From the NCBI RefSeq assembly GCF_011745625.1, contig NW_027191508.1, forward strand, positions 1 through 64,000: a DNA stretch of 64,000 nt, read 5' to 3'. The notes under the pieces were generated by a model, which was not told the DNA's origin, made no database searches, and saw nothing but the letters and a program-made list of their open reading frames with translations. Origin of the DNA: Cladosporium halotolerans. Its lineage: Eukaryota. Made by a program: the position numbers and the translations under genes. Shown piece after piece: positions 4,725-64,000 of this stretch (position 1 is the first letter of the stretch; the number at the start of each line of letters is the position of its first letter).

Positions 4725-5666
4725 CTGTAGACTCCTCGCCGGGCAGCCTATGCACTTGTCCCCTACTAACCTAGCTTGTGTCCACCTTTTCCTAGAACTG
4801 GCCTGTGACACTCCCTGCGCTTCGTATACAGCTGGCCTGTGTGCCCCTCCGCTCTGCCCTCCCTATAGTGGACTGTGACATCTCTTTTCTGCGCTGGACT
4901 GTGACCCCTCCCCTTCCTTGTCCGTAGATGGTAGTCGTGCCAGAGTACGGTAGTCGTATCAGGGAGGCCTTAACAGAGGCGCGAGAAGAGGGCTTAACAG
5001 TTCTCTAGAGCGGGTGCGCGGCGGGCGGCTTAACAAGGTCTGTATGCCTATTCGCAGTTAGCTTTAACAGGGTCCCTAGAAATCGGCTTGCAGTTCCCCT
5101 CGTCACGCCTTTCTCGCTGATCCGGCGTGTTCTCAGAGTAGTTCAAGCTCAGAGGTGTCCTGTCGCGCTCCTAGGGCTTCCACATTGCTGCAGCGAGTAG
5201 AACGCTACAGCGCGGGCTCTGCGCGCGACTGCAGAGTAGGAGCGCGTCGGGTGGTTTTCGTATCCAGTATCCTCTTGTCCTTCTTTAATGAGGGATTCCA
5301 TTCTTGACGAAGGGAGTAGCGTAATGGAGCAGTCACAGGGCGGCGTATAGTACTCCTGCCCCTGGACCTTCGCGACCGGTCGCGGCGTTCAGGCGGCGAC
5401 GGCGGCCATCCCTCATTGCCCCTACACTTAGCCAGCTCGTGGGTACGAGCTGTTTCCACCTGCGGCGGCGTGGACGCGTGTAGTAGGTCTTCGCAGGCAA
5501 GACTTGCAGCTCCGCTGAATATTTTTTTCTGTGCGCACCAACGAAAGATGCTTGAGCACATCTCTGGAATAGTCGACGGCTAATGATAGATATAAACTAC
5601 ATATGACGGTCGGGAGGTTGCGTAGGACATGAGACACAACGATTCACGTTTACTTTCCTAATTAGG

Positions 5667-25215: not shown

Positions 25216-26778
25216 GTGCTCGACTTCCCCATCGGTGACATTGCGCAAGTAGTAGAGGTGGTGATCGACGAGGCACTTGCCACACCTCTGAACAGCATAC
25301 AATGTGCCCGCGAGGAACTGAAAGATTGGATAGCCCAGTCTCAGATACAGATGACGAAGATGATGAAGGAGGTGATGGAAATGATCCAGGGCAAAGCCGA
25401 AAAGCGAGAGGAGATTTTACTCCAGAAACTCCTTGAGCAGTCGTCTAAGACGGTGCCTAGATGCTTGAAGTGCAGCAACAAGGCAGTGCCTGACCCACAA
25501 CAGGCGAGGTCAGAAACACAGTCTACTTCACAGCCAAATGATATCCCCAGCCAAACCTGGGCGGCCAGGCTCAGCGGTACAACGCATAAGACGAATGAGT
25601 GGACGACGGTCAGCGGACGGAGAAAAACTCCAGCGGCGAAGAAGACGCCCAAGAAACACCCTATGGACCAAAGACGAGTACTACTACTGAGACAGGTCCA
25701 GATCGAGCAAGATCGAGCCCAGCAGACAGACCCAAGAGATGTGATGCTTGCCGTAAACAAAGCACTTGCCCAGGGTGGAACAGATGTGTCAACGCGACTT
25801 GCAGGACTAAGGTACACAAGAAGAGGTCACCTGTCAGGGCTCACGTCCGAATATGCGAGCGCTGATGACATGCTCGAGCACGCAGTTGTAGTGACAGCGG
25901 CAGCTCGCAAGCTTGACCCGGCTGTGGTCAAGCTCGAAAAGACCGAAAAGTGGCGCAAGCTGCGTGTGCACGGAGTGTCGCTAGACCGCTACCTGGGAGA
26001 CGGAGGTCTCGACTTAGCGAAGGAAGAGATCGAACTGATGACCGGCGCGTCGTTACCGTACGCACCTCGGTGGATCAGGGCTGAGGGATTGGAAGAAAGG
26101 TATCACAGTGAAGAAGTCACCCGCTCGACGTTGGTAGTGACTGTGAAAAGTAAGAATGCCGCCGACACCATCCTGGCCAAGGGCCTCTCGTTCGGAGGCA
26201 GACGGCATGAGGCCGAGAAATTCTGGACGAAGGGAGAAGGAGGGATATGTATGCAATGTTGCGGGCACGATCACTTCGGCAAGTGCAAAGAAGCAGCAAA
26301 ATGCTACGTCTGCGCGGGAGAGCACGAAGGAACGGAACATCGCTGTCAGGTGAAGGGCTGCGAAAAGAAGTCGGCGCCATGCGAGCACCACGCCGCAAAG
26401 TGCGTGAACTGTGGAGGCAAGCATATGGCGACTTCGAAGGGTTGTCCTGAAAAGTGGCAGCAACGACAACGTAAAAGAACCGAAGCGACAGAAGGACAAA
26501 GCCCGCTTCAGAAAGCCCCAGAGGAGGCAATATGCTCTGATATTACGGAGGGGCACGCACGAAACTCGGGTCATCCCGACCGACCTAGCGAGCCAAGATC
26601 GACCCCATCGCTGCCAAAGACACCGGTAGTGAACCCACCCGCCCCGGCGGCAGGGTGGAATGGAGAATCTCTGGCCTTCGAGATGGACATCGGATCGGAC
26701 GTCGAGTCTTCCTCCCCGACTCCGAGACAGCGAAGAATCACCCCAATGACTATTAGTGATGATAGTGCTACAACATAA
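25216..26778 (+). CDS. LINE ORF1 (gag-like, zinc knuckles); start uncertain
   Basis: CMQCCGHDHFGKC, CYVCAGEH..HRC, CVNCGGKH..C. Confidence 0.85.
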   Translation: MLDFPIGDIAQVVEVVIDEALATPLNSIQCAREELKDWIAQSQIQMTKMMKEVMEMIQGKAEKREEILLQKLLEQSSKTVPRCLKCSNKAVPDPQQARSETQSTSQPNDIPSQTWAARLSGTTHKTNEWTTVSGRRKTPAAKKTPKKHPMDQRRVLLLRQVQIEQDRAQQTDPRDVMLAVNKALAQGGTDVSTRLAGLRYTRRGHLSGLTSEYASADDMLEHAVVVTAAARKLDPAVVKLEKTEKWRKLRVHGVSLDRYLGDGGLDLAKEEIELMTGASLPYAPRWIRAEGLEERYHSEEVTRSTLVVTVKSKNAADTILAKGLSFGGRRHEAEKFWTKGEGGICMQCCGHDHFGKCKEAAKCYVCAGEHEGTEHRCQVKGCEKKSAPCEHHAAKCVNCGGKHMATSKGCPEKWQQRQRKRTEATEGQSPLQKAPEEAICSDITEGHARNSGHPDRPSEPRSTPSLPKTPVVNPPAPAAGWNGESLAFEMDIGSDVESSSPTPRQRRITPMTISDDSATT

Positions 26779-29700
26779 TTGTAATAGCACGGCAGTAACA
26801 ACGACGGCAGCCCTTGAAGCAGCCATCGAACGATGGGCCGAGGTGGTGATCTTGCAAGAACCATACGTTGGCCGAAAACATCAGATCAGCCACCCCGGCT
26901 TCCAGATACGTTGGCCGGAAGGCGAGAATAGAGAGATAAGGGTGGCGCTGGCTATCCGTGTAGACGTACTGGACAGGTACGTTTTCGAAGAAAGAACCGA
27001 CCTTGTCGACCACCCGTGTGTGCAGTGCTTAGACATCTGGGAAACGCAGCGCCGGCAGAAGGTGCGAATGACAAGGGTGGTGAACATATACAACAGAGCA
27101 AGAATGGATGGCGGCGGGTATGCGATCAACCGCATCGACTTCCGACGGCTGATCCAAGGAAGGACGATTCTGGCAGGCGACTTCAACTCCCGAAGTCCCG
27201 CGTGGGACCCTTGGGTAGAGGGCCGTCACAACGCCGGCGCCACCGAAGGCCTCATCGGAGATTACAGCCTGATCGTGAACAACACCGACCAGCCGACAAG
27301 ATGCGGCCCAAGGAGCAAGTCAGTAATTGACCTGACACTCAGCACGCCGAGTGTTGGGGCGCTGCAGACGTGGTACATTGACGAGGATTTTGCGACACCT
27401 TCAGATCATGCGGTCATAATCTTCTCGTGGAGCCCACTCAGCTCACAGGCAAGCGGACTAGAAGCGAGACCGATGTCGAGCTGGAACATCGACGAGCTTT
27501 GCGCCGATAAAGAGAGACTCGAGCAAGCAGCCGACCACTGGAAGCAGATCTCCGAGAGCAGACGACACGTTTCGGCAGAGTCAAAGGAAGAAGACCTCGA
27601 GGCTGAGGCGCAGTGGATACAAGACAGCCTGACATGCGTCTTGAACAGACACGCGCCGCCGAAACCGGTGCACGCACGTTCAAAGCGGTGGTGGTCCGAC
27701 GCAGTCAAGAAAGGGAGGAAGAAGTTCAACTTAGCAAAACGAGCGCTACGAGAGGGCCTCTCCTCACAGCCGGAGTACCGCCGGATCAGAAACGACTACT
27801 ACAGCTGTATCCGACGCGCGAAACGAGAGGCTTGGGAACGCTTCTTGGAAGGAGTGCTACCGACCGACGAAGAGGCTCAAGCTACGGTTGACAGCGATCG
27901 GTGTTGGCGTGCGCTCCGGTACACCAAACCGCAAACGCCTTCGTACACCCCAGCAATCAAGATAATTGGGGATGATGGAGAGCTGATCGGCATGGCGGCG
28001 TCAGCAGAAGAGAAAGAAGAGATCTTCATGAAACAAGCCTTCCCTTTTCAAGCGAGCACGAACGCCGACAACCTCATTCCAAACACAATCGCGGAGGTCG
28101 GAAGAAGAGACGTGCAAGAAGCGCTCTTCGCACAGTCGGTCAAGAAAGCACCGGGTGTCGACAAGCTCGGGTCTCGCGCGCTCAGATTGCTGTGGCAGTG
28201 GGATGCCGATAGAGTAGTGGCCCTCATCAGAGGGTGCATTAGCGCAGGATACCACCCACACTGCTGGAAGATTGCCAAAGGTATCCTGCTGCGAAAGCAG
28301 GGCAAGCCTACTTACACCGTCGCAAGAGCCTACCGCGTTATCAGCCTGCTGAACTGCCTGGGGAAAGTGGTAGAGAAGGTAGCGGCTACGTGGATCACAT
28401 CTTACTGCGAGAAGAATGAGGTTTTTCACCAAGGACAGTTTGGCTGCCGTCACGGCAGAAGCACTTCCGACGCTGTCGCAAGACTAGTGTCATTCGTGGA
28501 AGATGCGTGGGAACGGAAGCAGACAGTGCTCACCCTACTGCTGGACGTCAAAGGCGCCTTTGACCGAGTGAACAAGCAACGTCTGCTCGAGCGTCTGATC
28601 GAAGTTGGCATCGCTGGCAACATCGTCCGCTGGGTCAACTCTTTCTTGTCTGACAGACGAGCGATGCTAGTCGTCGACGGCAGAACGGGGAAGACGCACG
28701 ACATCCAGGCTGGCCTGCCACAGGGCTCACCAGCTTCGCCAGTATTGTTCAACTTATCGATAAGCGCGATGTTCCCGTGGCTCGAAGAGATGCATCCAAG
28801 TTTGGAAGCGATCTCATTCGTAGACGACATAGGCCTTGTCTTGAAGTGCAACAAGCTGCGCGAAGGCGCGAGAGAGCTCGAGAGCATTACGCAATATGCA
28901 GTCGAGTGGGGAGACCGCAACAAAGTCGAGTTCGAAATCAGCAAGACAGAAGTCGTCGTCTTCAGCAAGCAGCGCAAAGTGCTACAAGAAAGCAGAGAAA
29001 CGTCGTTGCGTATCGGACAACACGGGCTTCCCATCAACTGCGGGGCGACTAAATGGCTAGGCTTCTGGCTAGACCCGAAGCTATCTTTTATGTCACACTT
29101 CGATAAGAGACTGGCGAGTGCCAAAGGTGCCTTGCAAAGGATAAAGGGCCTCAGTGGCAGTCGTGGTGGCTTACCCATGCGACTGATGCGGAGAGTAGTG
29201 GTGGCAGTCGTCAACTCGGTCGCACTTTACGGAGCTGAGGTGTGGTGGAGGGGACAGCAAGACCGTTCCAAGCGTCTGCAACTACTGCTGAACAGGCAAG
29301 CACGAGCTATCACTGGTATGCTGTCGTCTACACCGATCCCCACCCTGCTCGCGGCAGCTTGCTTGCCACGTGCTGGAGAACTGCTGGACTATCGCCAAAC
29401 GCGGTTTGCCGTGCGAGCTCTTTCTGCCGCACAAGACCATCCGACACATCAGCTGTTGCCCCCGAACTTTCGGATGGGCCAGTTGTACAGACACGAAGGA
29501 GCCGTAGACCGCTTGTCAAGCGTCGGCTGGCTCAGCCCCGACAAAACGCACCGTACACTCGGAGGCAGGCTGGCGCAGCAAATAGCTAAGAAGCTGGCCT
29601 ACGACACTGAATACGGGTTCGGCCTCCTCGAAGATCTGGGCTCGGCGGAAGCAGACATCGATGTCAGGGTTCGCGGCCCGGACATTACAACGACACAACG

Positions 29701-30637
29701 GAGGAGTGAGGAACAGCCAGAACAGCTCACGTTGTTCGCAAGGACCATAGACGGTACCGCCGAAGGCAACAGCTTCGGAGCGGGCGTCGTGTGGGAAGCG
29801 CAAGGCTGCTGGAGAAGAAAGGCAGCGTCACTCGGCAGATATCTAACCGTCGTGGATGCAGATCTGTTCGCTGTCAGCATGGCGGTGGAAGAAGCTTGCT
29901 CGAGCCTGCATAAGACGGGAAAGCGAAACGCAGAGATTGTGACGAATTCGCGAGAAGCTGTCATAGCGGTCACCAGGCTCACGCGGTGGATGCCATCGCT
30001 GGTGAAGCAGATCTTAAGCCAAATCAAGCAGCTTAAAGCGCGAGGATACGGTTTGACACTGTCATCAATCTCTGTCGACGCAGAGGCTGAAGGGGCGAGT
30101 ATTGCCGAGGCTTTGGCAAGTCGGGCAGCACGACAACAACCGCGACACATGCGTTCCGCATCGATCTCCTACGCGCAACAATGTGTGAAGGTAAGCGGGA
30201 GGCAATCACCCAAGCTGAACAAGCACATCAGAGACGCGAACAAAGCGGTAGCAACGCGATACCTACAGTTGAAGTCGGGCCACGCCGTGACAGGCGTGCA
30301 TCTGATGAGAACAAAGAGAGTGCAAAACACCCGATGCTGGTGGTGTGATGACAGCAGACAGAGCGTGGCACATCTGATGCTCAAGTGTCGCAAATGGAGA
30401 AGAGAGCGAGAGCAGATGCTGCGTGCCCTAGAAGCGAAGAAGATCAAGATATCGGCTAGAAGGAACGAGCAAGACGTACTGGTCCTGTTCGGGGAGACAG
30501 CTGTCGAGGCAGTATTGCGGTTCATCGAATGCACAGCAGTCGGCAAAAGGGCAGAGGCGAACAGCACACAAGGACTAGATGAGTGGGACATTGGTCTGCT
30601 CGACCGGGAAGGCACGGACGATGAGAGAGCACTTTAG
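26756..30637 (+). CDS. LINE ORF2: APE endonuclease, reverse transcriptase, RNase H-like, C-terminal CCHC
   Basis: LQHNCN, LQEP, AGDFN, SDH; KAPGVD, YRVISLLN, LDVKGAFD, GLPQGSP, FVDD, WLGF; CWWC...HLMLKC. Uninterrupted 1293 aa. Confidence 0.96.
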   Translation: MMIVLQHNCNSTAVTTTAALEAAIERWAEVVILQEPYVGRKHQISHPGFQIRWPEGENREIRVALAIRVDVLDRYVFEERTDLVDHPCVQCLDIWETQRRQKVRMTRVVNIYNRARMDGGGYAINRIDFRRLIQGRTILAGDFNSRSPAWDPWVEGRHNAGATEGLIGDYSLIVNNTDQPTRCGPRSKSVIDLTLSTPSVGALQTWYIDEDFATPSDHAVIIFSWSPLSSQASGLEARPMSSWNIDELCADKERLEQAADHWKQISESRRHVSAESKEEDLEAEAQWIQDSLTCVLNRHAPPKPVHARSKRWWSDAVKKGRKKFNLAKRALREGLSSQPEYRRIRNDYYSCIRRAKREAWERFLEGVLPTDEEAQATVDSDRCWRALRYTKPQTPSYTPAIKIIGDDGELIGMAASAEEKEEIFMKQAFPFQASTNADNLIPNTIAEVGRRDVQEALFAQSVKKAPGVDKLGSRALRLLWQWDADRVVALIRGCISAGYHPHCWKIAKGILLRKQGKPTYTVARAYRVISLLNCLGKVVEKVAATWITSYCEKNEVFHQGQFGCRHGRSTSDAVARLVSFVEDAWERKQTVLTLLLDVKGAFDRVNKQRLLERLIEVGIAGNIVRWVNSFLSDRRAMLVVDGRTGKTHDIQAGLPQGSPASPVLFNLSISAMFPWLEEMHPSLEAISFVDDIGLVLKCNKLREGARELESITQYAVEWGDRNKVEFEISKTEVVVFSKQRKVLQESRETSLRIGQHGLPINCGATKWLGFWLDPKLSFMSHFDKRLASAKGALQRIKGLSGSRGGLPMRLMRRVVVAVVNSVALYGAEVWWRGQQDRSKRLQLLLNRQARAITGMLSSTPIPTLLAAACLPRAGELLDYRQTRFAVRALSAAQDHPTHQLLPPNFRMGQLYRHEGAVDRLSSVGWLSPDKTHRTLGGRLAQQIAKKLAYDTEYGFGLLEDLGSAEADIDVRVRGPDITTTQRRSEEQPEQLTLFARTIDGTAEGNSFGAGVVWEAQGCWRRKAASLGRYLTVVDADLFAVSMAVEEACSSLHKTGKRNAEIVTNSREAVIAVTRLTRWMPSLVKQILSQIKQLKARGYGLTLSSISVDAEAEGASIAEALASRAARQQPRHMRSASISYAQQCVKVSGRQSPKLNKHIRDANKAVATRYLQLKSGHAVTGVHLMRTKRVQNTRCWWCDDSRQSVAHLMLKCRKWRREREQMLRALEAKKIKISARRNEQDVLVLFGETAVEAVLRFIECTAVGKRAEANSTQGLDEWDIGLLDREGTDDERAL

Positions 30638-30889
30638 CAGGGAGGAAGCGAGATGAGTGCAGACGCCGAGGGAGGACGTGGCAAAACCAAAGACAAGCTA
30701 GTATGAGGGCGCTGAGCCCAAAAGCCGTGGCGACTTGACTAAGTCGGGATGGCGAGCAGGATCGAAGGAATAACACCAACGCAGGAGCACAGATAGAAGA
30801 CCAAGAGGTTCGTCTAGGGATTAGCCCGGGCTTGTCATAAGCTGAACAGCTTGTATACAATATGATTACAAAAAAAAAAAAAATGGGGG

Positions 30890-31790
30890 ACAGTGTGACG
30901 TACACCACAAGAAGTGCACCCACACTTTCCATTGCAACCGCTGCCTCCACAGCAGGTCTTGCACTCGCAGCTTGCCATTTTGTCAGGATTGATGATTGAC
31001 TTGCGCCTCTTTTGTTGAGAAAGATTCTGATAGAACATGATCTATTATCCGTCAAAATTTGATGATGGAGGAATTCATTGGGAAAAAGTTGTTTCGAACA
31101 AGCATATGAGCTCCTATTTGTACCAGTTACTATCTGACTCGAAACAGGAATGGCAAAGCTGACCGCGGTCAATACGCGATAATATCGGACGATGGTAGTT
31201 GCTATGACGGAGCAGCGTATGCGGGGTAGGCCAAGGCTGGGACAGCCTATGAAGGCTGCCAATCACGATTGGCGGAGTTGTATGTCCAGCCGTCAGATCC
31301 GCAAATCATGCTAACAAGAGATGAGAACAGTGTATTCCGATCGATTCAGTGTGTACTGCGCTATATCCGCCACATCGGAATGATTTCCAACTGTTTCGCA
31401 AAGGAAAAGCGATAGAAAGGATTCGGGCGGAGCTCGCGTATCACGGACAATGGAAACACCCCACGCCCGCATTCTAGAAGTGCAGACGCCCTGCCTGTTT
31501 CTTCTTGGACGGAAACATGATCAATTTCGCGCGCGACTTTGGTGCTTGAGCACTCAACCCTGGCAATCAAACGACTTTACGTGGCCGGGTCCTTCCCGTA
31601 GAACCGGTGTGGGTCACCCAAGCACTTTCAGCCGCCATGATCTGATTTCCTGGATATTGTCGACCTTTCTTTTGCTATGAGGTTAGCCATGTAGAGGTGG
31701 TGCATAATGGCCAGGTCAAATACAAGAAGTGTGACAAGGAATGGGTCTACACATCGGCGTCTTTGCCTCCTCATCTCTGCTTGAAAAATC
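30890..31790. repeat. Diverged direct duplication of metallothionein exon 1 and upstream region (partner ~60860-61800)
   Basis: Shared blocks, e.g. gctgccaatcacgattggcggagt, ggagctcgcgtatcacg, cacccaagcactttcagccgc, tcggcgtctttgcc. Confidence 0.85.
30904..30978 (-). pseudogene. Copper metallothionein copy 1, exon 1 (intron interrupted by LINE; exon 2 not found)
   Basis: MASCECKTCCGGSGCNGKCGCTSCG followed by GTACGT donor. Confidence 0.85.
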
Positions 31791-35142: not shown

Positions 35143-35215
35143 GCCGGACGGAGAGCGCACACCTTCACGGGGTGTCCGGTGTGAGTAGCTGCTATGCAGT
35201 GAAACCAAGTGCGCT
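35143..35215 (+). ncRNA. HDV-like ribozyme fold (family A)
   Basis: P1 GCCGGAC/GUCCGGU, P2 AGCGCAC/GUGCGCU, P3 ACC/GGU, L3 UUCACGG, J4/2 CCAA. Confidence 0.75.
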
Positions 35216-39339: not shown

Positions 39340-39520
39340 CACTTTCGGCTCTTGGCGGTACCTTGATGGAAGGCTACTAGAGTGGCCCACCTCATGCTCG
39401 AATGTCGTAAATGGAGAAGAGAGCGGGAGACGATGCTGGCAAGGCTTGGAGCCAAGAGAAAGAATATCAGCGAGAAAGTATGGTGGTAACCAACTGATCC
39501 TGTTCGGCGAGTCGGTGGTA
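39340..39520 (+). pseudogene. LINE ORF2 C-terminal fragment
   Basis: Translates to HLMLECRKWRRERETML, matching HLMLKCRKWRREREQML of the intact LINE. Confidence 0.7.
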
Positions 39521-39593
39521 GCCGGACAGAGAGCGCACGCCTTCACGTGGTGTCCGGTGTGAGTAGCTGCTATGCAGTGAAACCAAGTGCGCT
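39521..39593 (+). ncRNA. HDV-like ribozyme fold (family A, best-preserved copy)
   Basis: P1 GCCGGAC/GUCCGGU (G1-U wobble), P2 AGCGCAC/GUGCGCU, P3 GCC/GGU, L3 UUCACGU, J1/4 GU, J4/2 CCAA. Confidence 0.8.
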
Positions 39594-40127: not shown

Positions 40128-40296
40128 TAACGATTACATTGACGTTAAGCAAGCTACCGTATGATCTAGAGCACATTAACCATACAACCGTTCGAAATAG
40201 TTTAGTCACAATAAGCCTGCGGTGACGCAGGATTCCAACTCTGTTGGTGTTATGTACAACCATTGCCGGAGTAGGCAAAGTTGTTGTGAATGACTA

Positions 40297-40448
40297 GAAG
40301 TCTTCCCCCACTTGTGCACATCCCTGGCTCGTGCACACTTTCACAGCTCATTAACAACACCCTTTCACACGCGATATCTCCACAACCATGGCTTCTATCG
40401 AATACAGTGTGCACGAGCCAGGGATGTGCACGAGTGGCGGAAGACTTC
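40297..40448. mobile_element. Tc1/pogo-type MITE with TA target duplication
   Basis: ~45-bp TIRs gaagtcttcc..gtgcacatccctggctcgtgcacac, flanked by TA on both sides. Confidence 0.9.
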
Positions 40449-40760
40449 TACGTCGCCGTCACCGCCTATTAGACGCCCCCACCGACCATCTGCTTATGCC
40501 GTAGGTGCTTCTCTACGTTCTCAGGCCCGCTCCCTGCGCCGGCACCTTTGTATGTTATCATGCCCTCAGAGCCCTGAGGTATTGTGCTAGTACCTCACCG
40601 GATCTATCCTAACGCAGATATCTGGGTGCTTCCTTAAATGTTTTACTTTCCAGCATGTCTGGCTTGGGGTATGTACATGTTCACATACATTCTGGTATTA
40701 CTGAACCTTTGCCTACATTACTGCGCTAGCCTCTATTTACACCGATTTTTGCAAGCGAAA

Positions 40761-43700
40761 CTACTCACGAAAACCAATGCCGGGGATGCGAGTCCGCAAC
40801 AGTAGACTGCTCGCGACAACGCTGATGCTGCTAAGCGCCATTGCAAGCGCGGCCCAAGCTGGATCAAGCCGGACACGAGACCCACCACTCGTCTGGATTG
40901 GATACAAGACCCCTGCAGCAACGGGCAAGGCAATCATGTTGTAGAGAGCTGCCCAAAAAAAGTTGAGGATAACGCGTCGAAAAACCACACGGCTGAGAGT
41001 CACCAAGGTAAGCACCGCACGGAGATCCGACTGCACCAGCACGAAAGCGGCAGACTGCACGGCTACGTCTGAGCCGGACGCGACAGCAATTCCGACGTCC
41101 GCGGCAGCCAAAGCAGGCGCGTCATTGATGCCGTCGCCGACCATGGCGATGGTCGCACGGCTTCGTTTGTTGGTCAAGGCGCTCTGGAAACCTCCACCGC
41201 GTCTTGGCTCGAGCGATTGCTGTAAATATCTCACTCTCTCCGCTTTTTGGGCAGGCAACACCCCGGCAATGATATTACCAGGCGGTATGCCGACGTGGCT
41301 ACCAACGGCGTTCGCGGTCTTGGAATTGTCTCCGGAAAGCATCCAAACATCGACACCCCGATTTTGTAACAACCTCACAACTTCTGCCGCTTCCGGACGA
41401 AGAGGGTCTGATGCAGCCAAGATAGCGCCCAGTCGCCATTTCTCTCCTGAGAAGCGGCAGGCCAAGAGCATCACCGAGTAGCCAGATATTTTCCATGAGT
41501 CCATAAGATCAATGTCTTCTTGCGGCACTTCTACGCCATAGTCCAGGAGCAAGGCTTCGTTACCGACCAAAGCTTCGTATCGGCCTCCAACGTAGCCATG
41601 TGCCGGTTCAATCATGGCTTTGAGACCTTTGCCTGCGATTTCTTCTAAAGCAGAGGTTCGCACCACTGCTGCGCCTTCTGATGTTGCAAAATTAACAGCG
41701 GCTCGTGCAAGCGGATGGCTGCTGTTCTCTTCCACGCCTTTGAGCATTCCAAAGATAGTTGACTGTTCAAGCCCGGCAACACCGGTAAATACTTTGTGTT
41801 GCACAATCCTCGGCTCAGCACCTTCTGTGAGGGTGCCGGTCTTGTCGAAGACGACGGCATCCAAATTGCTCGCTTCTTGGAAAGCTTCTCCGCCACCCTT
41901 GACCAGGATTCCGCGTTTCGCGGCCAGTCCACCGCCGACGAAGAGAGCGGTCGGTGCTGCCAGACCTAGGCCACAAGGGCAGGCAATGACGAATACGGCA
42001 ATCGCGAATTGTAATGACCAAAATGGCCAACCGCCGATGTTGTTGTCCAGGTAACTTAGTGGAAGCGCTCCTGAGAGACCGAGGGAAAGCCAAATGATCC
42101 AGGTCGTAACGGCGATGATAACAACTACAGGCACAAAGTATGCCGTAAGCAGATCTGCAATGCGCTCCACAGGAGCACGCTTGGACTGGCCCTCACGGAC
42201 GATCTGAATGATTGAGTCCAACATTGACGCACCAGCGGGGCCCGTGACTTTGATCGTAATTGCCTGGCCTTGGTTGATCGTGCCAGAGAAGATCGCATCG
42301 CCCTTTTGCTTCCCGGCCAGGCGAGATTCCCCCGTCAGACTTGACTCGTCAAAATCGGCCGACTCGTCTAGCAATGTCCCGTCGCATGGAGGGCTAGAGC
42401 CGTGCGGGATCCTGACCAGATCTCCAGTATCAATGAGATCCACGCTCACACGTTCCACAGCAGAATTACCATCCCTGTCATTCTGCACAACTAGACTCGC
42501 CTCTGCGGGCCTCAATTTGCCCAGTGCTGAGATCGCGTCGCCTGACTTTGCTTTCATACGGGCTTCTGCTAGCCGGCCTATAAGCAGAAACATCGTAAGG
42601 AATACGACAGAGTCAAAGTATGATTGCTTCGAGCTCTCAACCATATCCTTGGAAGGGTCCGAGGCGGCCACTATCAACTCCGCCAAAGACGAAAAATATG
42701 CGATGGTCGTTCCTAAACTGATGAGCATGTTCATGCTGCCGAAGCGGTACAACCTTTTCGCGATCGGGACCGAACTTCGGGGCCGCCAGAGTGCGTAGAC
42801 CTCTTTTAGCATTCGCCTGTGGAAGTGGTCTGCTGCAAGGAAGTAAACCGGAGTCGCCATGATGAAATTGGCCCACTCCGCCCGGCTGACGCCATGCAAG
42901 GGGTGCATCAGATACATGTAGCCTGGGTCGTGCTTGGAGACGAGGTTCATGTAAACCACGCCAACGATCAGGGAGGGGATAGCAGTGAGGATGGACAGTA
43001 TTGCACGTAGAAATATTGCCCTTTGTTCTTTCACGAGCATTTCTCGAGAACGCTGCTCGACAGAGATCGCTTTGTGAATGCCAACAGTGAACGAATCGTC
43101 GAGTGCACTGAGGTCGTCTATGATCCGCCGTACCGTCAACTTCGGGGCGTCCGGAATGTACGAGATAGTAAGGGTGGGATAATCCAGCGTCGGCGCCTTT
43201 TGTATATCGGCCTGTAGCCCCCGAACAGTTTCAGAGACGCGCTTCGGGCATTGGGGACAATGCATGCCATGGATCCGCAGTGATATCGTCCTGGACGCAG
43301 CTACATCTCGTTTCGCAAGTGGCTTAAGGTCAACGAGTGTGGTTTTGTAGCCAACCTTATTGATCGCGTTGAGAACAAGGGCCTCGTGGTTCTTGCCACT
43401 GAATGTCACTGAACCCGTATGCGCAACGAGGTTGACTTCGGCTCGTTCCACGAACGGGAGCTCCTTGATGGCGGAGGAAACCTTGCCAACGCAGGAGCTG
43501 CAAGTCATGCCCTCAATCGCATATGTCGCCTCCCAGGAGCCACTCTTGTCCCCGACCTCCTTTTCACCTGCTGTTGCAGGGACGTAGGTCACTTCCATCA
43601 ACCGAGCATCATACCCTGCGTCTTCAGCAGCTCGTATCAATTCGAACGTGACGCTCTCGGCCTCGTTGGTCCTGAAATGCACGTTGGCGCTGCGACCAAC

Positions 43701-44285
43701 GAGGGATACGTCCGCACGGTCCACGGTACTGACATTCTGCAGGGCTTTCGTGACGTTCCCAACGCACGAACTGCAAGTCATACCATCGATCGACAGCGTT
43801 GCCAGATATAGCGGTATTGCGTCGACAGCATCGGATATAGCGACAGACTCCAGAACTTCTGGCCCTTTCGCGGTTTTGCCATACGCGGCGCACACCTGGC
43901 AATTAGCGTCGTGCATCAGACGAGTGGACCCATCCATTTGCGAATGTCGTTTCGGATCCCATCGCTGCACCGCTTCTTCCAGATGGGCGTCAGGGCCAGC
44001 CTGCGCCGGGAGCTTCTCACTTGACGCGGGATCAGCAATTATGTCGAATACCTCGTAGCCAGCTGATGTGAGCACGTCGCTTAACGAGATAGCTGGTAAC
44101 GCGTTCTCGTGGGCGATGGTGACGATGTGGTTGATGATGGAGATGTTTTTGATGACCGGTGCAGGGGTGAAACCGTCCATGAGAGAGGTAATATGACTGA
44201 CGCATGTAGGGCAGTGAAGATTGGGAACCAGGAAGGACGTCTGCAAAAGTGCAACGGGGGCACTGGGGTCTGAGCATTTCTCCAT
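40761..44285 (-). CDS. P1B-type copper-exporting ATPase (CrpA/CRD1-like)
   Basis: Four HMA motifs (LHCPTC, GMTCSSC x2, GMHCPQC), TGES, CPC, DKTGT, SSHP, GDGINDAP, YN and MALSS Cu(I) signatures; intronless 1174 aa. Confidence 0.96.
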   Translation of the reverse strand: MEKCSDPSAPVALLQTSFLVPNLHCPTCVSHITSLMDGFTPAPVIKNISIINHIVTIAHENALPAISLSDVLTSAGYEVFDIIADPASSEKLPAQAGPDAHLEEAVQRWDPKRHSQMDGSTRLMHDANCQVCAAYGKTAKGPEVLESVAISDAVDAIPLYLATLSIDGMTCSSCVGNVTKALQNVSTVDRADVSLVGRSANVHFRTNEAESVTFELIRAAEDAGYDARLMEVTYVPATAGEKEVGDKSGSWEATYAIEGMTCSSCVGKVSSAIKELPFVERAEVNLVAHTGSVTFSGKNHEALVLNAINKVGYKTTLVDLKPLAKRDVAASRTISLRIHGMHCPQCPKRVSETVRGLQADIQKAPTLDYPTLTISYIPDAPKLTVRRIIDDLSALDDSFTVGIHKAISVEQRSREMLVKEQRAIFLRAILSILTAIPSLIVGVVYMNLVSKHDPGYMYLMHPLHGVSRAEWANFIMATPVYFLAADHFHRRMLKEVYALWRPRSSVPIAKRLYRFGSMNMLISLGTTIAYFSSLAELIVAASDPSKDMVESSKQSYFDSVVFLTMFLLIGRLAEARMKAKSGDAISALGKLRPAEASLVVQNDRDGNSAVERVSVDLIDTGDLVRIPHGSSPPCDGTLLDESADFDESSLTGESRLAGKQKGDAIFSGTINQGQAITIKVTGPAGASMLDSIIQIVREGQSKRAPVERIADLLTAYFVPVVVIIAVTTWIIWLSLGLSGALPLSYLDNNIGGWPFWSLQFAIAVFVIACPCGLGLAAPTALFVGGGLAAKRGILVKGGGEAFQEASNLDAVVFDKTGTLTEGAEPRIVQHKVFTGVAGLEQSTIFGMLKGVEENSSHPLARAAVNFATSEGAAVVRTSALEEIAGKGLKAMIEPAHGYVGGRYEALVGNEALLLDYGVEVPQEDIDLMDSWKISGYSVMLLACRFSGEKWRLGAILAASDPLRPEAAEVVRLLQNRGVDVWMLSGDNSKTANAVGSHVGIPPGNIIAGVLPAQKAERVRYLQQSLEPRRGGGFQSALTNKRSRATIAMVGDGINDAPALAAADVGIAVASGSDVAVQSAAFVLVQSDLRAVLTLVTLSRVVFRRVILNFFWAALYNMIALPVAAGVLYPIQTSGGSRVRLDPAWAALAMALSSISVVASSLLLRTRIPGIGFRE

Positions 44286-44939
44286 TGTGGGCTGGTAGAC
44301 GATTAAGTCACAAGTATGATTGCTGGACTTGTAAGGGATAACATGCTCCTTCTACAGCATATTTATTTGCGAACATATAGCGGCATTTGTGCGTCGCACG
44401 TTCACGTAAGGCTAGCGTTCCCCGGCGTGGCGAGAAGGATCGACGCTTTGGCTAGTGACATATGACAAACCTCGCGCCGAGACCATACCGACACCTTGTC
44501 TCTTAGCTCCCGTGTGTTCCTGACCACTGGCTTCGACGCGCAAGTCGCGCATGAAGACGCAAAACCACTTTGGTGGTCTGGCGCACAAACCGCGCACGCC
44601 CGAGCTTCTACTCGGCGACCTCGCCACTTGCTAGAACTTGAAACTTTGTTGATTTGTACCTTCTACAGCTGCAGTGACAAACATCAAGCATTGCCTGGAT
44701 CAATTCGCTAGAGTTGCAGTAGTTCTAGGATCCTAAGGAACCAGATATTGTCTTTTACATCGGCACGATTTCCCCCGTCACGAATCGAAATCCCTCGCCA
44801 ATTATACTGTTGGCCCCCAGCCTTTACACTTCTGCATCGAAGCGCAGCACTCGGAGGGCTGAGAGCATGACGTGTTCAAATAAGCACTTATAAGTTAGCG
44901 ATCATCTTTGTGACAATGCTGTGGAAAAAACATCCAAGA

Positions 44940-45802
44940 CCATCGGTCAACGGGCCCAGCGCCGCTTCAAGACGAAAGGCAACATCTCTGTGCGACAGAT
45001 CGACCATTTCCGGAGAAGAGCCAAAACGATACAGCAGCAATCGTACCTCACTGGACGTGGCGAAAGCAAAACGGTTATCGGGAGAGAGATCGAAGACGTC
45101 TGGACAGCCAGATAGGCTAGAACTAAGTACAAGGAGCAAACGCGGGCGCTAGCGAAAGAAGATGACAATATAGCGGTTGCAGCGGCAATGGAGTGGACTC
45201 GAAGACTACGAGCGAATGAGAGCCTCACGAGAGCCGAGAGCACAGCCGCAACGTTACTACGGACCGAACATATTGGGTTGAACGACTACCTGTTTCGACG
45301 GCGGGGCTTCGGGCTCAAAGCCAGACTGCGATTGTGGCTGGCCGAGACAGACTCCAAAGCACATCATCCTGTTCTGTCCTGCGCACACGCCAGGACGCGC
45401 AGATATGCTTGCAGAGGCAAAGACGACCGACTATACCAAGCTGCTATCGATCGAGGCAGGCTTGCGCGCGGTGACGAGGTGGTTCCTGCAACGAGACGTC
45501 CTCGCCCAGTTCTCGCTGGCAAGGACTATGGACGATGCGAAATCAAGGCGAAGGGGGCGAAGGCCGGGGACGTACGTGGATGAGGATGATGGCGACCGCT
45601 GAAGCGCGTGTAAGATGCACAGCTACCGCTCACTGTATCATAGCCTCACTGACGGAAGGACATGGGCTACTCGTTGCAGAGGAAGGAGTTTTCACCCGGG
45701 TTACCACCACGGTTTTTCTCCTTGATAGCATACATAGCAACAGCCCGCATGGACCCGTAAGGGAGCTGCACCGGGATAATGGAATATCAAATCAATCAAT
45801 CG
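44940..45802 (+). mobile_element. 5'-truncated LINE remnant with (TCAA)n tail
   Basis: LLRTEHIGLNDYLFRR then CDCGWPRQTPKHIILFC in an adjacent frame; 3' tail 45690-45802 repeated at ~47050-47182. Confidence 0.75.
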
Positions 45803-45806
45803 ACCA

Positions 45807-45888
45807 GGCCAGCGAAGGGAGTCCACCTGTACGTGGTGCTGGCTACGAACCTCTCCTGCCGTATTAATGAGAGAGCCGAGAGACTCCC
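45807..45888 (+). ncRNA. HDV-like ribozyme fold (family B)
   Basis: P1 GGCCAGC/GCUGGCU, P2 GGGAGUC/GACUCCC, P3 ACC/GGU, L3 UGUACGU, P1.1 GU/AC, P4 CUCUC/GAGAG. Confidence 0.72.
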
Positions 45889-46594
45889 ACGCCACAGATG
45901 CCGACAGCAAACAATCAAGACAGAGCAAAAGCGACCTGGAGCGCCCAGCGCGGTCTTTCATCATCAGCTCCTCTAAGCAGTCGCAGACACGCCGACAAAC
46001 CGAGACACAGCCCGCGACGCCGATTTCACCACCTACAGTCAACTGGCTCACCTACCTCCCGCCCGCCTACAAAACCCTTGGTCGTTCCGTCACGAGACGG
46101 AAGTGCGGGTTTGGTATCCCCGCAACCGTAGCTGCCGTACAGTCGGGTTTGGTTAAGAACGAGAGGGCGGAAGAGACGGGTAGACAGGAGGATAGAGGCC
46201 GTTTGAAAACCATGGTACGCTGGACATTGCGACGAAGGGGTGCGTGAAAGGATGCTGGACGGACAGACTCCACTGCTTGAAAGGCCTGCTATGCTGGGGC
46301 TCCAAGTAAGGGTATGCTTGAGGCGCATCAACAGGAATCAACACCAAGCATAGGCAAGAAAGCTGCCGAGGGAACGCATCGAGGAGGATAGCGCAGGTGG
46401 AATGGGTTGACTGGAGGGGACGCCAGCCTCGCCTTGTATTCGCACGCGGTACCTGATCTCATCACGACAACAGAGTCACGCTACATCTGCAGGAGACACG
46501 AGGGGATAGAGCTTTTCGTCGCAGCTGTCACGGTCAGGATCTGGGATCCCTGTCAAGTACGCAGATAATTGGTCATAGAATGAATGAATGAATG
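45807..46594 (+). mobile_element. Putative non-autonomous retroelement, family B
   Basis: Ribozyme-like head, no credible ORF, (GAAT)n tail at ~46578-46594. No TSD seen. Confidence 0.5.
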
Positions 46595-47289
46595 GTCCTA
46601 TCTAAGGCTGCTCGGCATTCAGCCATCTCTATAGCCGCAACTCGGCAATGTGCGGAGGTGCTTGGCAATGGTCACCTGACTCAGCAGCATAGCTACTGAC
46701 TCAGTCGAATTACCACAATCCCCGTAACACCGCACGTGATCGCTGGGAAGGCAGGTAAGCCGGGCTTCGGCTTCACCTGCGCTTCTCTCTTGCAGCTTGT
46801 TCGTAGCATCATCATTATCATCATCATCATCATCATCATTGTTCGTAGCTCTTCGAGCTACGTCCTCGTCATCTAAGCAGCCACTGGGTTGTAACCGAGA
46901 CCGTACATAGCTCTGTATCTGATCTGATTGGCAACCATACCCACGCACTGCATACACCGAGTCACCGACACCCGCCCGTGACAGCAGCACCTTCTTACTG
47001 TACTGCAGAATCACTGGTAGCAGGGCGGCGGCCACTCATCTCAGAAGAAGTTTTCACCCGGGTGGAGGCTGATGCCGGAAACCACGGTTTTCCTCCTTGA
47101 ATACCATACATACCAGCAGCCTGCATGGATCCGTAAGGCTAAGTTACACCAGGATAATGGAATATCAAATCAAATCAATCGACGGATCTCTCTGATTGAA
47201 TTGACCCACTTTAAATTACAGGTCTGATTGATTGATTGATCAATCAATAACGATAGAATTGAATTGAAGTGATTGATTGCTGGACACAC

Positions 47290-49620: not shown

Positions 49621-49945
49621 CGTCTGAGCCCTTCTCCATGTGGGCTGGTACAAGGCTAAGTCACACGTTCGTTCGCTTTGCGTGCGGAGCTGACAACAGT
49701 CTCCTCATACACGCAACGCTAGCGTTCCCCGGCGTGGAGGCGGCGAGAAGGATCGACGTTTTGGCTAGCGGCAGATGACCAAGCTGGCGCCAAGAACATA
49801 CCGAAACCTTTTCTGTTACGGTAGCTCCCGTGTCACCCTCACGACTGGCTTTGACGCGCAAATCGCGCATGAAGACAGAGGACCGCTCTGGTGGTCCGGC
49901 GCACAAACCGCGCAGGCTCGAGCTTCTCCTCGGCGACCTCGCCGC
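49621..49945. repeat. Diverged copy of the Cu-ATPase start codon region and upstream sequence (partner 44268-44630)
   Basis: ttctccat(t)gtgggctggta; gctagcgttccccggcgtgg; gcgagaaggatcgacg; ggcgcacaaaccgcgca; ctcggcgacctcgcc. Confidence 0.85.
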
Positions 49946-50228
49946 CTGCTATGATGCTTGGTTGGTTTGAAATTCCTGAGCACGACCTAGCGCCGCAGAA
50001 GGCTGCATGTCTCAATTCGGATTGATGCGCGGTCCGCCCTGTGCTGCGCGACTTCTGCGGTGGCGCCATACCAGGGCTGGAACGTCTGTGCCGCGGGGCT
50101 AGACGATATGTGGCAGTGTATGTCCAACTGACAAGTATATAGGCTCTTCAGGAGGCGCTTTCCACCGGCCACTATATATCGCCCCTACGCAGTCGATTTG
50201 AATCGACTCGTATCTTGCCCACGCGACC

Positions 50229-60690: not shown

Positions 60691-60952
60691 TTACTTGCAC
60701 TGGATGTCAGGGTCAGCTAGCTAGACTCGCGAAGACTGAAACCCAACAGCCGCTACCATCAAGGTAGCTGGCCATCGAGGTAGCCGTCCATCAAGGTAGC
60801 CGTCCATCAAGGTAGCCGTCCATCAAGGTAGCTCTTGGTAACCATCAAAATATAAAAAGGGGGTTATGGTGACATACACCGCAAGAGGTGCATCCGCACT
60901 TTCCATTGCAACCGTTCCCGCCACAGCAGGTCTTGCATTCGCAGCTTGCCAT
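60691..60952 (-). CDS. Copper metallothionein copy 2 (predicted 27 aa, 2 exons)
   Basis: Exon 1 60878-60952 MASCECKTCCGGNGCNGKCGCTSCG; GTATGT...GCTGAC..CAG intron; exon 2 TGC AAG TAA (60691-60699). Confidence 0.85.
60756..60832. repeat. 16-bp minisatellite (~4.8 copies) in the metallothionein intron
   Basis: (ccatcaaggtagccgt)n. Confidence 0.9.
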
Positions 60953-61845
60953 CTTATTGGAGGTCGGATTCGATTTGTGCCTGAAAATTAAGAAGCTTTC
61001 TAAATAATATTCGGCTTTTCTCTGTGAAGGTACGATAAAATTTCTTTCAGGTAAGAACACGAGCTCCTACTTGTACTCTTCGACTGGATGCTGAAATGGC
61101 AGAGCTGGGCTGAGCTCACGATGACGCCCATCGTGTCTGCGGGGTGCTTTCGTCACTCACTTGGCGCAGAGGATTCGTCATACCGGGTTCTCGCGGTCGA
61201 TACTGGATCATACTGGACGATGGTTATTCCTATGACCCAGCAGCATGTGCGGGGTTGGCCACGCTAGGACAGCTCCATGAAAGCTGCCAATCACGATTGG
61301 CGGAGTGGCATGTTCAGCCGTCGCGCCCAATGAATATGCCAGCAAGAGGTGGGGTCGACATATTCCGATAGATTCCGTGCATACTTGTGCTAATACCAGA
61401 ACATAGGGCTTCCGCCTTTTCACAAAGGATAACGTTAAGCGCTAGAAAACATGCAGACGGAGCTCGCGTATCACGAACGTGGAGACACCGTACGCCCCGC
61501 ATTTTAGAAATCCAGGCGCCTGCCTATTGCTTTTTTTGGATGGGAACGGGATCACCGCCGCGCGCGACCTTGGTGTTTGAGCACTTGGTCCTGGCATCCG
61601 AACTTACGTAGCCTGCTCCTTCCCGCACAATGGTGCGAGCCACCCAAGCACTTTCAGCCGCGATAATCTGGTTTCCTGGATAAAGCTGACCTCTTTTTGA
61701 CTGTAACATTGTCAACCAACTTAGAGAGGTGTTGCGTAATGGCCAGGTTATATTCAAGATCTGTGACTGGGAATGAGTCTACAACCTCGGCGTCTTTGCC
61801 CTATAGAGTGAGAAGAGACAGGCTTCTTCTCCATTTGAACGGCGT

Positions 61846-62766
61846 GGCGGACGGAGAACGCACACCTTCACGTGATGTCTGGTGTGAGTAACTGTAAACG
61901 CAGTGAAACCAAGATGCGCTCAAAAACAGTCAGAAGCGATGAGCCACAAGGCAGTTTCGCAACGAGTGATCACTTGACGACCTAGCCCCAGCGACGACGC
62001 CCGAGACGGCCGCCGTCCACCCGTCGGAAGAGTTGACACGACACGACCAAGCCTGCGCGCACCGCACGCCAACAAGCAATACGCCCACTGCCGCCGACGC
62101 GGCCGCCAATGCGACTCAACATCCATGATGAGCAAGAGTTGGACAACGCGCACAACAAGCACACGAGCATTGTAGCTCTCGAAGGAAGATCCATATGTAG
62201 GCTCGCAAACGAGGCGAGTCCCCAGATAAACACCCTGTCCCCATGGGCTCGCCCAGTCTAATACAACACGACAAGCATGCCAGGCGCGGCACGCCAGCAC
62301 CTACAACCACAGTCGAGTCCTTATACCTCGCACATGGGTTGAGAAAGAGGCGGACAACAAGTAACACACCGAGGGAAGGCAGCTGCTTTATGTAAGCACC
62401 CCCTCACCAGACGCGCATGCTAGCACGTTCTTTAACCGAGCACACGACGATAAGCCTCGCACAGCCCAGGTTGCGGCAAAAAGGGTAACGCCTGTGTCTC
62501 TTATACGAGCAAGAGGCGCCAGAGAGAGAGACAAGACAGCACAGTTTTTCAGTATCGGAGGCCGCCGGCCTGTGACGCAGGAGAGAGGAAGAGAAGCGGA
62601 GAGGAGGAGAGGAGGGCACCGAGCCCAAAAGCCGTGGCTTGGCCAAGCCGAGATGGCGAGCAGGATAGCATGGAGTGATAAAGCAGGAGCTAAGATGGAA
62701 GATCAAGAAAATGTCTGCAAATCACCAAGCCTGGGATAAGGCTTAAACCAAATAGCTTGAATGCAG
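61846..62766 (+). mobile_element. SINE-like family A, older diverged copy
   Basis: Degenerate ribozyme head (61846-61920) and LINE-like 3' part gagcccaaaagccgtggc...gatggcgagcaggat. Confidence 0.78.
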
Positions 62767-62768
62767 TA

Positions 62769-64000
62769 GAAGTCTTCCCTGACTCGTGCACATCCCTGGC
62801 TCGTGCACACTGCTTTCACATCATGACCATCACCTTCGCAGCACTACATCTCGATGTAAACACATTCGCTTGAAGTGCCAAATAGCTCGTTGCAGCCGTG
62901 GTAGGTTTCTCTGTAATTCTATATACTTAGATATCATCAAAGAACCTTGGTCGCTTGACAGCCCTGCCAGTTCTTGACCTCGGCTGTTCTGGCACTATTT
63001 CAGCTTCTGGCTCAGTAGCAACTGCGACAGGTTCTTCAGACTGTTTCCGCTTCACCGGCCTTCCTCTTGGTCGTTTACTGGAGGCCCTAGACTTTGTTCG
63101 AAGTTGTTCCACACCCTTTTTAGCTAGCCTGTCACGCTCCTTTTGGGCCTTGTCAAGAGCCTTCTTGGTCTTCCTTGCGGCAGCTTTGATAGCTCTATCC
63201 TCGCGCTTCTGCTGAGCCTCCAACTCCCTGTGAGCCTTAAGCTGAGCTCTATCTTGGGCTTGGAGCAATCGATCGAGCGCCTCGTCGTCTTTAGAAGCTT
63301 TCCCCACCTCAGGCACGTCCACACCTCAGGCACGCTTGACGGGCCCGGTGTCGAGGAGCTTCCACTACTTGTATCTCACACATCAACAACTCAATCCAGC
63401 TGAAAACATATCATCAAGAAGCTACAGTACCACTCTACAAGTCTGCAACAAATTTATGTTCTGAACCGGGCTGGTCGGCGCACTGGCCGGCCTTTCGCCG
63501 TGGTCGCCTGCTCTACAGGCTCAATGACTACTGGCTCTCGTAGAGTGTTTGAAACACTCTCAGCAGCTGGTTGTTTCTTTGAGAAGCTTTGCAGTCGCCT
63601 GCTCGCAGCCCTCGATTTCATGTCATTCAGTTTCTGAGCTTTCCTAGCCTCTCGTGACGCCTGTGCTGCGGCCTTCTTCTGGGCTGCAGCTGTCTTGCGA
63701 GCAAAAGCAGCTGCAGCTCGTTCATCTCGTTTCCTCTGCGCCTCTACCTCCTTCTGCGCCTTCTTCTCAGCTCGTTCTTGAGCCCTGACCTCTTTTTCTT
63801 GCTGCGACTTCTCCTTCTCTCGCTCTCTGCTCGATGCAATGTCTCGCGTCTTCTGGATTTTGGAAGGGCTCATGAACAGCGTCCCAGATGGGCCAGAGGC
63901 CCTTAACTCGTCTATAACCTTCCTCTTCCTCTTCTTCCGCTTTTCCTCTTCGTGAATAGGCCCACTTAACTGCTTCACCTTCAGATTTGATAACACAAGC
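62769..64000 (-). mobile_element. 3' end of a pogo-like transposon (same TIR as the 40297 MITE), with two basic C-terminal ORF remnants
   Basis: TA-gaagtcttcc..gtgcacatccctggctcgtgcacac; ORFs 62927-63322 and 63454-63996 end in similar GR.V.RP.RF motifs. Confidence 0.72.

Follow-up and report, generated by a model that had tools for sequence, protein, structure and literature searches.

The 82 bases at positions 45807 to 45888 on the plus strand of the window, the 64,000-nt stretch of Cladosporium halotolerans DNA that was analysed, most likely encode an HDV-like self-cleaving ribozyme that belongs to a large subfamily in fungi and is intact in this copy. Judged from the letters, they probably make up the 5′ end of a non-autonomous non-LTR retroelement of ~790 nt, which is non-coding and has a (GAAT)n tail. 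The bases are arranged as a nested double pseudoknot (P1/P1.1/P2/P3/P4) with the following elements:

45807–45813 with 45838–45844, plus strand: P1, GGCCAGC with GCTGGCT, with a G1-U pair at the helix base, read from the sequence
45807, plus strand: G1, the predicted first base of the cleaved RNA, where homology between copies begins
45814–45816, plus strand: J1/2, GAA, preceding the 5′ strand of P2
45817–45823 with 45882–45888, plus strand: P2, GGGAGTC with GACTCCC, the ribozyme ending at 45888
45824, plus strand: unpaired C between P2 and P3, a C in 90/90 sequences
45825–45827 with 45835–45837, plus strand: P3, ACC with GGT, read from the sequence
45828–45834, plus strand: L3, TGTACGT, read from the sequence
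45845–45846, plus strand: AC able to pair with G45829 and U45830 as P1.1 (U45830-A45845 and G45829-C45846)
from 45847, plus strand: GAAC before P4, near-invariant among the 90 sequences
45851–45855 with 45869–45873, plus strand: P4 hairpin, CTCTC with GAGAG, closing a 13-nt loop
45874–45881, plus strand: J4/2, AGCCGAGA, which holds C45876 and C45877

An earlier note, made from the letters alone, had proposed P1, P2, P3, L3 and the pairing of AC with L3, and all of these are present in the sequence at the positions it gave. When the window copy is aligned with 89 distinct metagenome sequences, it has the majority letter wherever an unpaired position of the resulting 90-sequence alignment is near-invariant. 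The cleavage-site pair at the base of P1 is G-U in 87 of the 90 sequences and A-U in the other three. Either C45876 or C45877 in J4/2 is the candidate catalytic cytosine; each is replaced by T in 11–12 of the 90 sequences, never both at once, and at least one C is retained in all 90. Many of the differences in P1 and P2 among metagenome loci L008–L127 are likewise C-to-T or G-to-A changes, and the two patterns together are compatible with repeat-induced point mutation or with either cytosine being usable. At the base of P4 the alignment conserves an asymmetric internal loop in which GAAC lies opposite AGCC; the AGUA opposite GAA that is the signature motif of an E-loop is absent.

Relatives were gathered from a metagenome collection with a 21-base pattern that comprised P3, L3, P3′ and P1′ of the candidate, with one position given as Y. 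The pattern matched at least 120 metagenome loci, a count that is inflated because ~100 of the 120 come from one related assembly series, duplicates included. In viral contigs, a 17-base core gave seven matches, none with the fold. Outside the searched pattern, all of the metagenome loci follow the same plan, with a 7-base P1 starting GG, a 3-base linker and a P2 of 6–8 bp on the 5′ side and, on the 3′ side, a conserved ACGAAC, a hairpin variable in length and sequence, a conserved AGCC(A/G)AGA and then P2′. A covariance model, R1, built from the 89 metagenome sequences only and with the window left out, returned one match over the window, which spans 45807–45888 end to end at 74.5 bits (E 2.2e-18).

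The pairing across these sequences was evaluated over 23 pairs in the 90 distinct sequences (89 metagenome plus window). Standard pairs are formed in 98.5% of the cells, which count sequences and not events, compared with 41–58% in a slid control in which the 3′ partners were moved by 1–3 columns. Both sides change in 10 of the 23 pairs, and the covariation score was reached by none of 500 shuffles. In P2 all six aligned pairs display changes on both sides, with compensating versions that include GAGATC/GATCTC, GGGATC/GATCCC, GAGGAT/ATCCTC, GGGACC/GGTCCC and TTGAAC/GGTTCA among others. P1 is 99.5% paired, and its position 5 changes on both sides (G-C in 70 sequences, A-U in 18), while the outer pairs of P4 are 95.3% paired with three of five covarying. 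The 3′ side of P1.1, the AC that lies outside the search pattern, is A in 90/90 and C in 89/90 sequences, and the single exception, a T, makes a G-U pair. Because the relatives were collected with a candidate-derived pattern that fixes P3, L3, P3′ and most of P1′, the P3-L3-P3′ columns are uninformative within the family; every helix that is free to vary is backed by covariation, which supports the proposed structure.

Other scans of the window give a mixed picture. A compact HDV descriptor, which was tuned after the candidates had been seen, finds four matches in the window (35143, 39521 and 45807 on the plus strand and 5498 on the minus strand) against a mean of 0.39 and a maximum of two per shuffle in 100 dinucleotide shuffles; at the candidate's own stringency the expectation falls to 0.05 per shuffle, with 5 of the 100 shuffles holding a match. 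The plain minimum-free-energy fold of the candidate is unremarkable (z −0.37), as would be expected of a pseudoknot. Rfam 15 produced no matches at the gathering threshold over the whole window and, at E≤10 across 45700–46000, noise only and no HDV-type match. On the covariation and the R1 match, the HDV-type fold at 45807–45888 is confirmed as real.

What such a ribozyme heads is evident from its relatives. Their upstream flanks are unrelated to each other, and in pairwise BLAST comparisons the homology begins exactly at G1 in 2307 pairs and at position −1 in 800, among the 4654 pairs in which 60 nt or more of upstream sequence were available (4754 pairs when shorter flanks are admitted); 45 pairs with common flanks are attributable to the same locus having been assembled twice. 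For the commonest relatives, homology stops ~1.14–1.19 kb downstream, giving units of ~1.15 kb in which no ORF kept between copies was found, and a Pfam search of 40 downstream frames returned nothing above threshold, with zf-C2H2 and SPT16 as sub-threshold hits only. The units end in (TCAAA)n, (TCAA)n or (ATTAC)n microsatellites. Exact target-site duplications of 9–16 nt flank 24 of 27 distinct insertions, and the upstream copy of the duplication ends at the base before G1 in 19 of these 24, whereas mismatched-flank controls gave no duplications of 9 nt or more in 35 comparisons. The insertion sites are many, unrelated and mostly AT-rich. Over their last ~150 nt the relatives resemble the 3′UTR of a LINE whose truncated copy immediately precedes the candidate in the window (local score 22, z 8.9), and a 3′ end in common with a LINE is the usual sign of a SINE-like element that uses the LINE reverse transcriptase. 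From the boundary at G1, the duplications and the tails we therefore conclude that the relatives are retrotransposed non-autonomous units starting at the base predicted for the cleavage product. The proposal of the earlier note that the ribozyme heads a retroelement family is thus supported, as evidenced in the relatives by the sharp G1 boundary, the microsatellite tails and the target-site duplications.

The unit in the window has the same layout:

45807–46594, plus strand: the unit, ~790 nt, consisting of ribozyme, ~690-nt body and tail
45889–46577, plus strand: the body, with no similarity to the relatives' bodies or elsewhere in the window
46578–46593, plus strand: the 3′ tail, (GAAT)4, plus a G to 46594, read from the sequence

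The earlier note had described ~790 bp of non-coding sequence ending in (GAAT)n; the (GAAT)4 is present at 46578–46593, and the longest stop-to-stop frame overlapping this putatively non-coding unit is 155 aa (45780–46247). The unit has no similarity to the LINE ORFs of the window and so, by that comparison, no reverse transcriptase ORF. Beyond the ribozyme, its body shows no similarity to those of the relatives. Its last 165 nt do not resemble the LINE 3′UTR (z 0.02), and its 3′ end is also not significantly like that of the relatives (z ~0).

The putative mechanism of propagation begins with transcription of the unit, which carries no recognised promoter and would be read through from upstream. 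The first 82 nt of its RNA would then fold into the nested double pseudoknot, as the covariation in the relatives indicates. By analogy, a J4/2 cytosine (C45876 or C45877) would catalyse attack by the 2′-OH of A45806 on the A45806–G45807 linkage, and the released RNA would start with G45807 bearing a 5′-OH; the chemistry of cleavage by a J4/2 cytosine, which leaves a 5′-OH, is established for the HDV class. Supplied in trans, a LINE reverse transcriptase would prime on the microsatellite tail and copy the RNA to its very first base, and because copying would extend to that base, new DNA copies would begin at G1. These copies would be flanked by target-site duplications, an end state that is seen in the relatives and presumed for the window copy.

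The window copy itself has an intact ribozyme at all conserved positions, yet it is a poor specimen as a retroelement. Read depth was taken from X1, a source-like run that holds 99% of the window's words. The body has a depth of ~34 in X1 against 30–34 in unique flanks and is thus about single-copy there; the upstream LINE part reaches a depth of 160–545 in the same run. Extra contigs occur only over 46210–46317 and over the ribozyme core. One X11 contig, accompanied by a shorter X1 trace, has other flanks, starts GGCCGGCGACGAG and after 45852 continues GTCACTGGCAACAGTTG; these letters are those of the L065-type metagenome subfamily, so that those genomes contain at least one further member of the ribozyme family. 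No target-site duplication was found around the window unit. The copies and duplications of 45807–46594 that the earlier note had suggested looking for are accordingly lacking in what was searched, the unit being about single-copy in X1 and unduplicated at its ends. Contigs of an RNA (metatranscriptome) library, X6, match the body over 45905–46438 at 99–100%, a match that signifies presence in an RNA library and not a transcript end, with DNA carry-over possible and 45796–45904 having no X6 contig. Contigs from the runs of other organisms are nearly identical to the window across the same 3′ junction (X8 over 46445–46603 and X11 over 46289–46596). The window copy looks like an old, single insertion.

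These properties raise the alternative that the copy is an inert fossil, which has inherited the fold from a once-mobile element but has since lost transcription, cleavage and copying and now serves no role. A body that is about single-copy in X1, the missing target-site duplication and a surrounding region that is a pile of truncated repeats would all be expected of such a relic, and the X8 and X11 contigs over the same 3′ junction fit one old insertion common to them. Against this stand the intactness of every conserved ribozyme position and, with the proviso of possible DNA carry-over, the near-identical contigs in the RNA library, and on balance we consider the fossil rather unlikely. It overlaps with the retroelement reading given at the outset because it concerns present mobility and not the identity of the sequence.

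A second alternative arises from the sequence that abuts the ribozyme on its 5′ side:

45116–45806, plus strand: a 5′-truncated LINE, outside the unit, comprising a frameshifted ORF2 C-terminus, 3′UTR and tail, then GACCA
45600–45602, plus strand: the LINE ORF2 stop, at the end of the frameshifted C-terminus
45787–45801, plus strand: the (TCAA)n-type tail of the LINE, followed by the 5 nt GACCA and then G45807

The 3′UTR of this LINE recurs at 46985–47183 with 73% identity, and the LINE is multi-copy, its other copies diverging after ~45795. The plus-strand stretch at 46985–47183 represents another truncated copy of this (TCAA)n-tailed LINE 3′UTR, and it is followed by a patch of GATT, TCAA and GAATT microsatellites at 47160–47285 (plus strand). 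Direct repeats of ~205 nt (44429–44633 and 49742–49951, plus strand), 84–85% identical and 5.3 kb apart, bracket the LINE fragment together with the ribozyme unit.

The LINE fragment and the unit might be one chimeric insertion, in which the reverse transcriptase jumped from the ribozyme-made 5′ end of the unit to the 3′ end of a LINE RNA; in a related version, the ribozyme would act on transcripts that read through from the upstream LINE and trim them. For R2-type reverse transcriptases, end-to-end template jumping is established, which counts for the proposal, and a jump would explain why a mere GACCA separates the LINE tail, ending at 45801, from G1 at 45807. It would also accommodate two further observations, namely that the LINE 3′UTR is a genuine repeat, with the other copies diverging after ~45795, and that the unit alone lacks a duplication. 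The composite, however, is also without a flanking duplication, as no 8-mer or longer word from the 30 nt after the tail recurs in the 2.3 kb upstream, and the 8-mer ATCGACCA, present at 44999 and 45799, is at chance level. Nor do the upstream flanks listed for the relatives show a LINE-type tail beside G1, in an inspection made by eye and uncounted, and the adjacency of LINE tail and G1 is for this reason a single case. The junction can alternatively be read as chance nesting within the repeat pile, and we keep the chimeric insertion, which is improbable, as a minor rival.

That the structure is a chance look-alike of the HDV topology without biological meaning, as might be argued from the dozens of matches per strand that a loose descriptor yields, the minimum-free-energy z of only −0.37 and the lack of an Rfam match, is already contradicted by the R1 E-value of 2.2e-18, by a core common to at least 120 loci with compensating changes in P1, P2 and P4, by the 5′ boundary and target-site duplications of the relatives that fall at G1, and by four compact-descriptor matches where 0.39 are expected, and it retains a negligible probability.

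The retroelement reading remains the preferred one for 45807, and the ribozyme there can be compared with other HDV-like sequences in the window:

35143–35215, 39521–39593 and 61846–~61920, plus strand: family A ribozymes, P1 GCCGGAC, L3 TTCACGT or TTCACGG
5498–5422, minus strand: an HDV-like candidate different from both families, from descriptor scans, P1 GCCTGCG, L3 TCCACGC

Family A shares with 45807 its topology, the P3 ACC/GGT, an extra base between P2 and P3 and a sharp 5′ boundary. It differs in P1, P2, P4 and body, which are unrelated, and in having AGUA opposite GAA at the base of P4, and its P1.1 has one C-G pair. Behind their sharp 5′ boundary the family A copies have only ~340 nt in common, and the third copy has a P1 mismatch. 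The minus-strand candidate at 5498 displays the canonical two G-C pairs in P1.1, an 8-bp P4 and GCTAA before P2′. P1.1 accordingly consists of U-A and G-C at 45807, of C-G and U.U in family A and of two C-G pairs at 5498 on the minus strand.

Run over the family A copies, R1 gave no match at E≤10, and the bodies are without similarity, in agreement with the claim of the earlier note that the helices differ from those of family A and the topology is the same. In the P1.1 that the note had called covarying, both sides differ from family A and from the 5498 candidate. The L3 of family A differs from that of 45807 at two of seven bases, and over the whole P3-L3-P3′ core the two differ at only two of 13 bases; the cores may therefore have common ancestry. 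The independence of the two families that the note had postulated is consequently relative. A strategy that recurs, as the note had also suggested, is seen within the window in three copies of family A, one of 45807 and the further candidate at 5498.

Several of these ribozymes have LINE sequence nearby. An ORF2-like LINE piece (residues 1204–1233, 73% at the protein level) lies at 39379–39471 on the plus strand, ~50 nt upstream of the family A copy at 39521. A second copy of the 3′UTR of the window's full-length LINE, at 60847–61802 (plus strand), ends 44 nt before the family A copy at 61846. Three of the four plus-strand ribozymes (45807, 39521 and 61846) thus sit 5 to ~50 nt after a LINE fragment.

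The window as a whole is repeat-rich and, by its protein domains, looks fungal, with several copies of ORFs that have OrsD-domain and DEAD-helicase features and a Tc5/pogo-type transposase, in addition to the following:

40761–44285, minus strand: copper P-type ATPase, from its ORF domain
25216–31768, plus strand: full-length LINE, with ORF1 at 25216–26778 and ORF2 at 26756–30637 (endonuclease and reverse transcriptase)

The full-length LINE has a ~1.1-kb 3′UTR and is without a simple-repeat tail, and no ribozyme was found at its head. A small MITE-like element of ~157 bp, bounded by terminal inverted repeats of ~45 bp, occurs at 40295–40451 and 62766–62834.

Ribozymes of this kind have precedents in fungi. 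Li and Breaker (2017, BMC Genomics 18:785; PMC5640933) reported 230 variant HDV ribozymes from 26 fungal species, mostly Eurotiomycetes, which typically have (i) C-G as the cleavage-site pair, (ii) an E-loop that partly replaces P4 and (iii) an extra nucleotide, usually C, between P2 and P3. Representatives from Penicillium chrysogenum and Aspergillus niger cleave in vitro at the base of P1, and the variants are described as having 'widely variable gene associations' and many copies per genome (PMC5640933). In the text of that article the word retrotransposon does not occur, and motif searches in three of its supplements gave no match. The present subfamily resembles these variants, as they are described there, in its filamentous-fungus setting, its HDV double pseudoknot, its extra C (45824; 90/90) and its many copies with variable neighbours, and differs from them in the cleavage-site pair, which is C-G in theirs and G-U here (87/90). 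Since the published description says 'typically', the G-U pair does not exclude membership (PMC5640933). A canonical form of the E-loop as described there is not evident in the present subfamily, and family A fits that feature better.

Precedents for the role come from outside the fungi. HDV-like ribozymes have been described at the 5′ ends of R2, L1Tc, RTE and baggins, and ORF-less parasites of R2 are known as well (PMC6765202). By that description, R2 and its SIDEs are like the present elements in that a ribozyme constitutes the 5′ end of a non-LTR element co-transcribed with upstream sequence and that ORF-less derivatives spread in trans, whereas R2 is site-specific in 28S rDNA and the present relatives have microsatellite tails and occupy many unrelated, mostly AT-rich sites, a comparison made by description (PMC6765202). 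In the L1Tc element of Trypanosoma cruzi, too, the ribozyme takes up the initial ~77 nt of the RNA of a dispersed LINE and co-transcriptionally frees the element from longer transcripts, but L1Tc belongs to another kingdom, is autonomous and has an internal promoter, in contrast to the non-coding unit described here (PMC3185411, PMC6765202). A literature search, conducted mostly by title and the start of the abstract and covering few subscription journals, found no description of ribozyme-headed non-autonomous retroelements in fungi.

Taken with these precedents, the ribozyme at 45807 is a new member, and possibly represents a new subfamily, of a kind that is known and has been validated biochemically, and it is set apart from the PMC5640933 variants by their description in the text and not by alignment. 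As a broader proposal, which we advance tentatively and judge somewhat less probable than its negation, SINE-like retroelements of 0.8–1.2 kb may be a widespread class in fungi that has so far escaped annotation, with their first base set by a distinct HDV-like subfamily (G-U cleavage site, extra C after P2, P1.1 of U-A and G-C) and their 3′ ends borrowed from LINEs with (TCAA)n-type tails; the 5-nt junction between LINE tail and G45807 would then be the relic of a jump of the reverse transcriptase from the ribozyme-made 5′-OH end to another template.

The advance lies in scope and not in kind, because the concept is already established in animals and trypanosomes; the naturally occurring U-A/G-C P1.1 is a useful detail and no surprise, as is the support that the duplications lend to a ribozyme-defined 5′ end. 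The covariance model, together with the natural variants of P1, P2, P4 and P1.1, is usable for annotating fungal elements that Rfam 15 does not detect. For the fungal HDV variants, the finding supplies a concrete job, namely marking and producing the precise 5′ terminus of non-autonomous retroelements. The evidence for this job is direct and comes from DNA, as in 19 of 24 cases the target-site duplication lies immediately next to G1.
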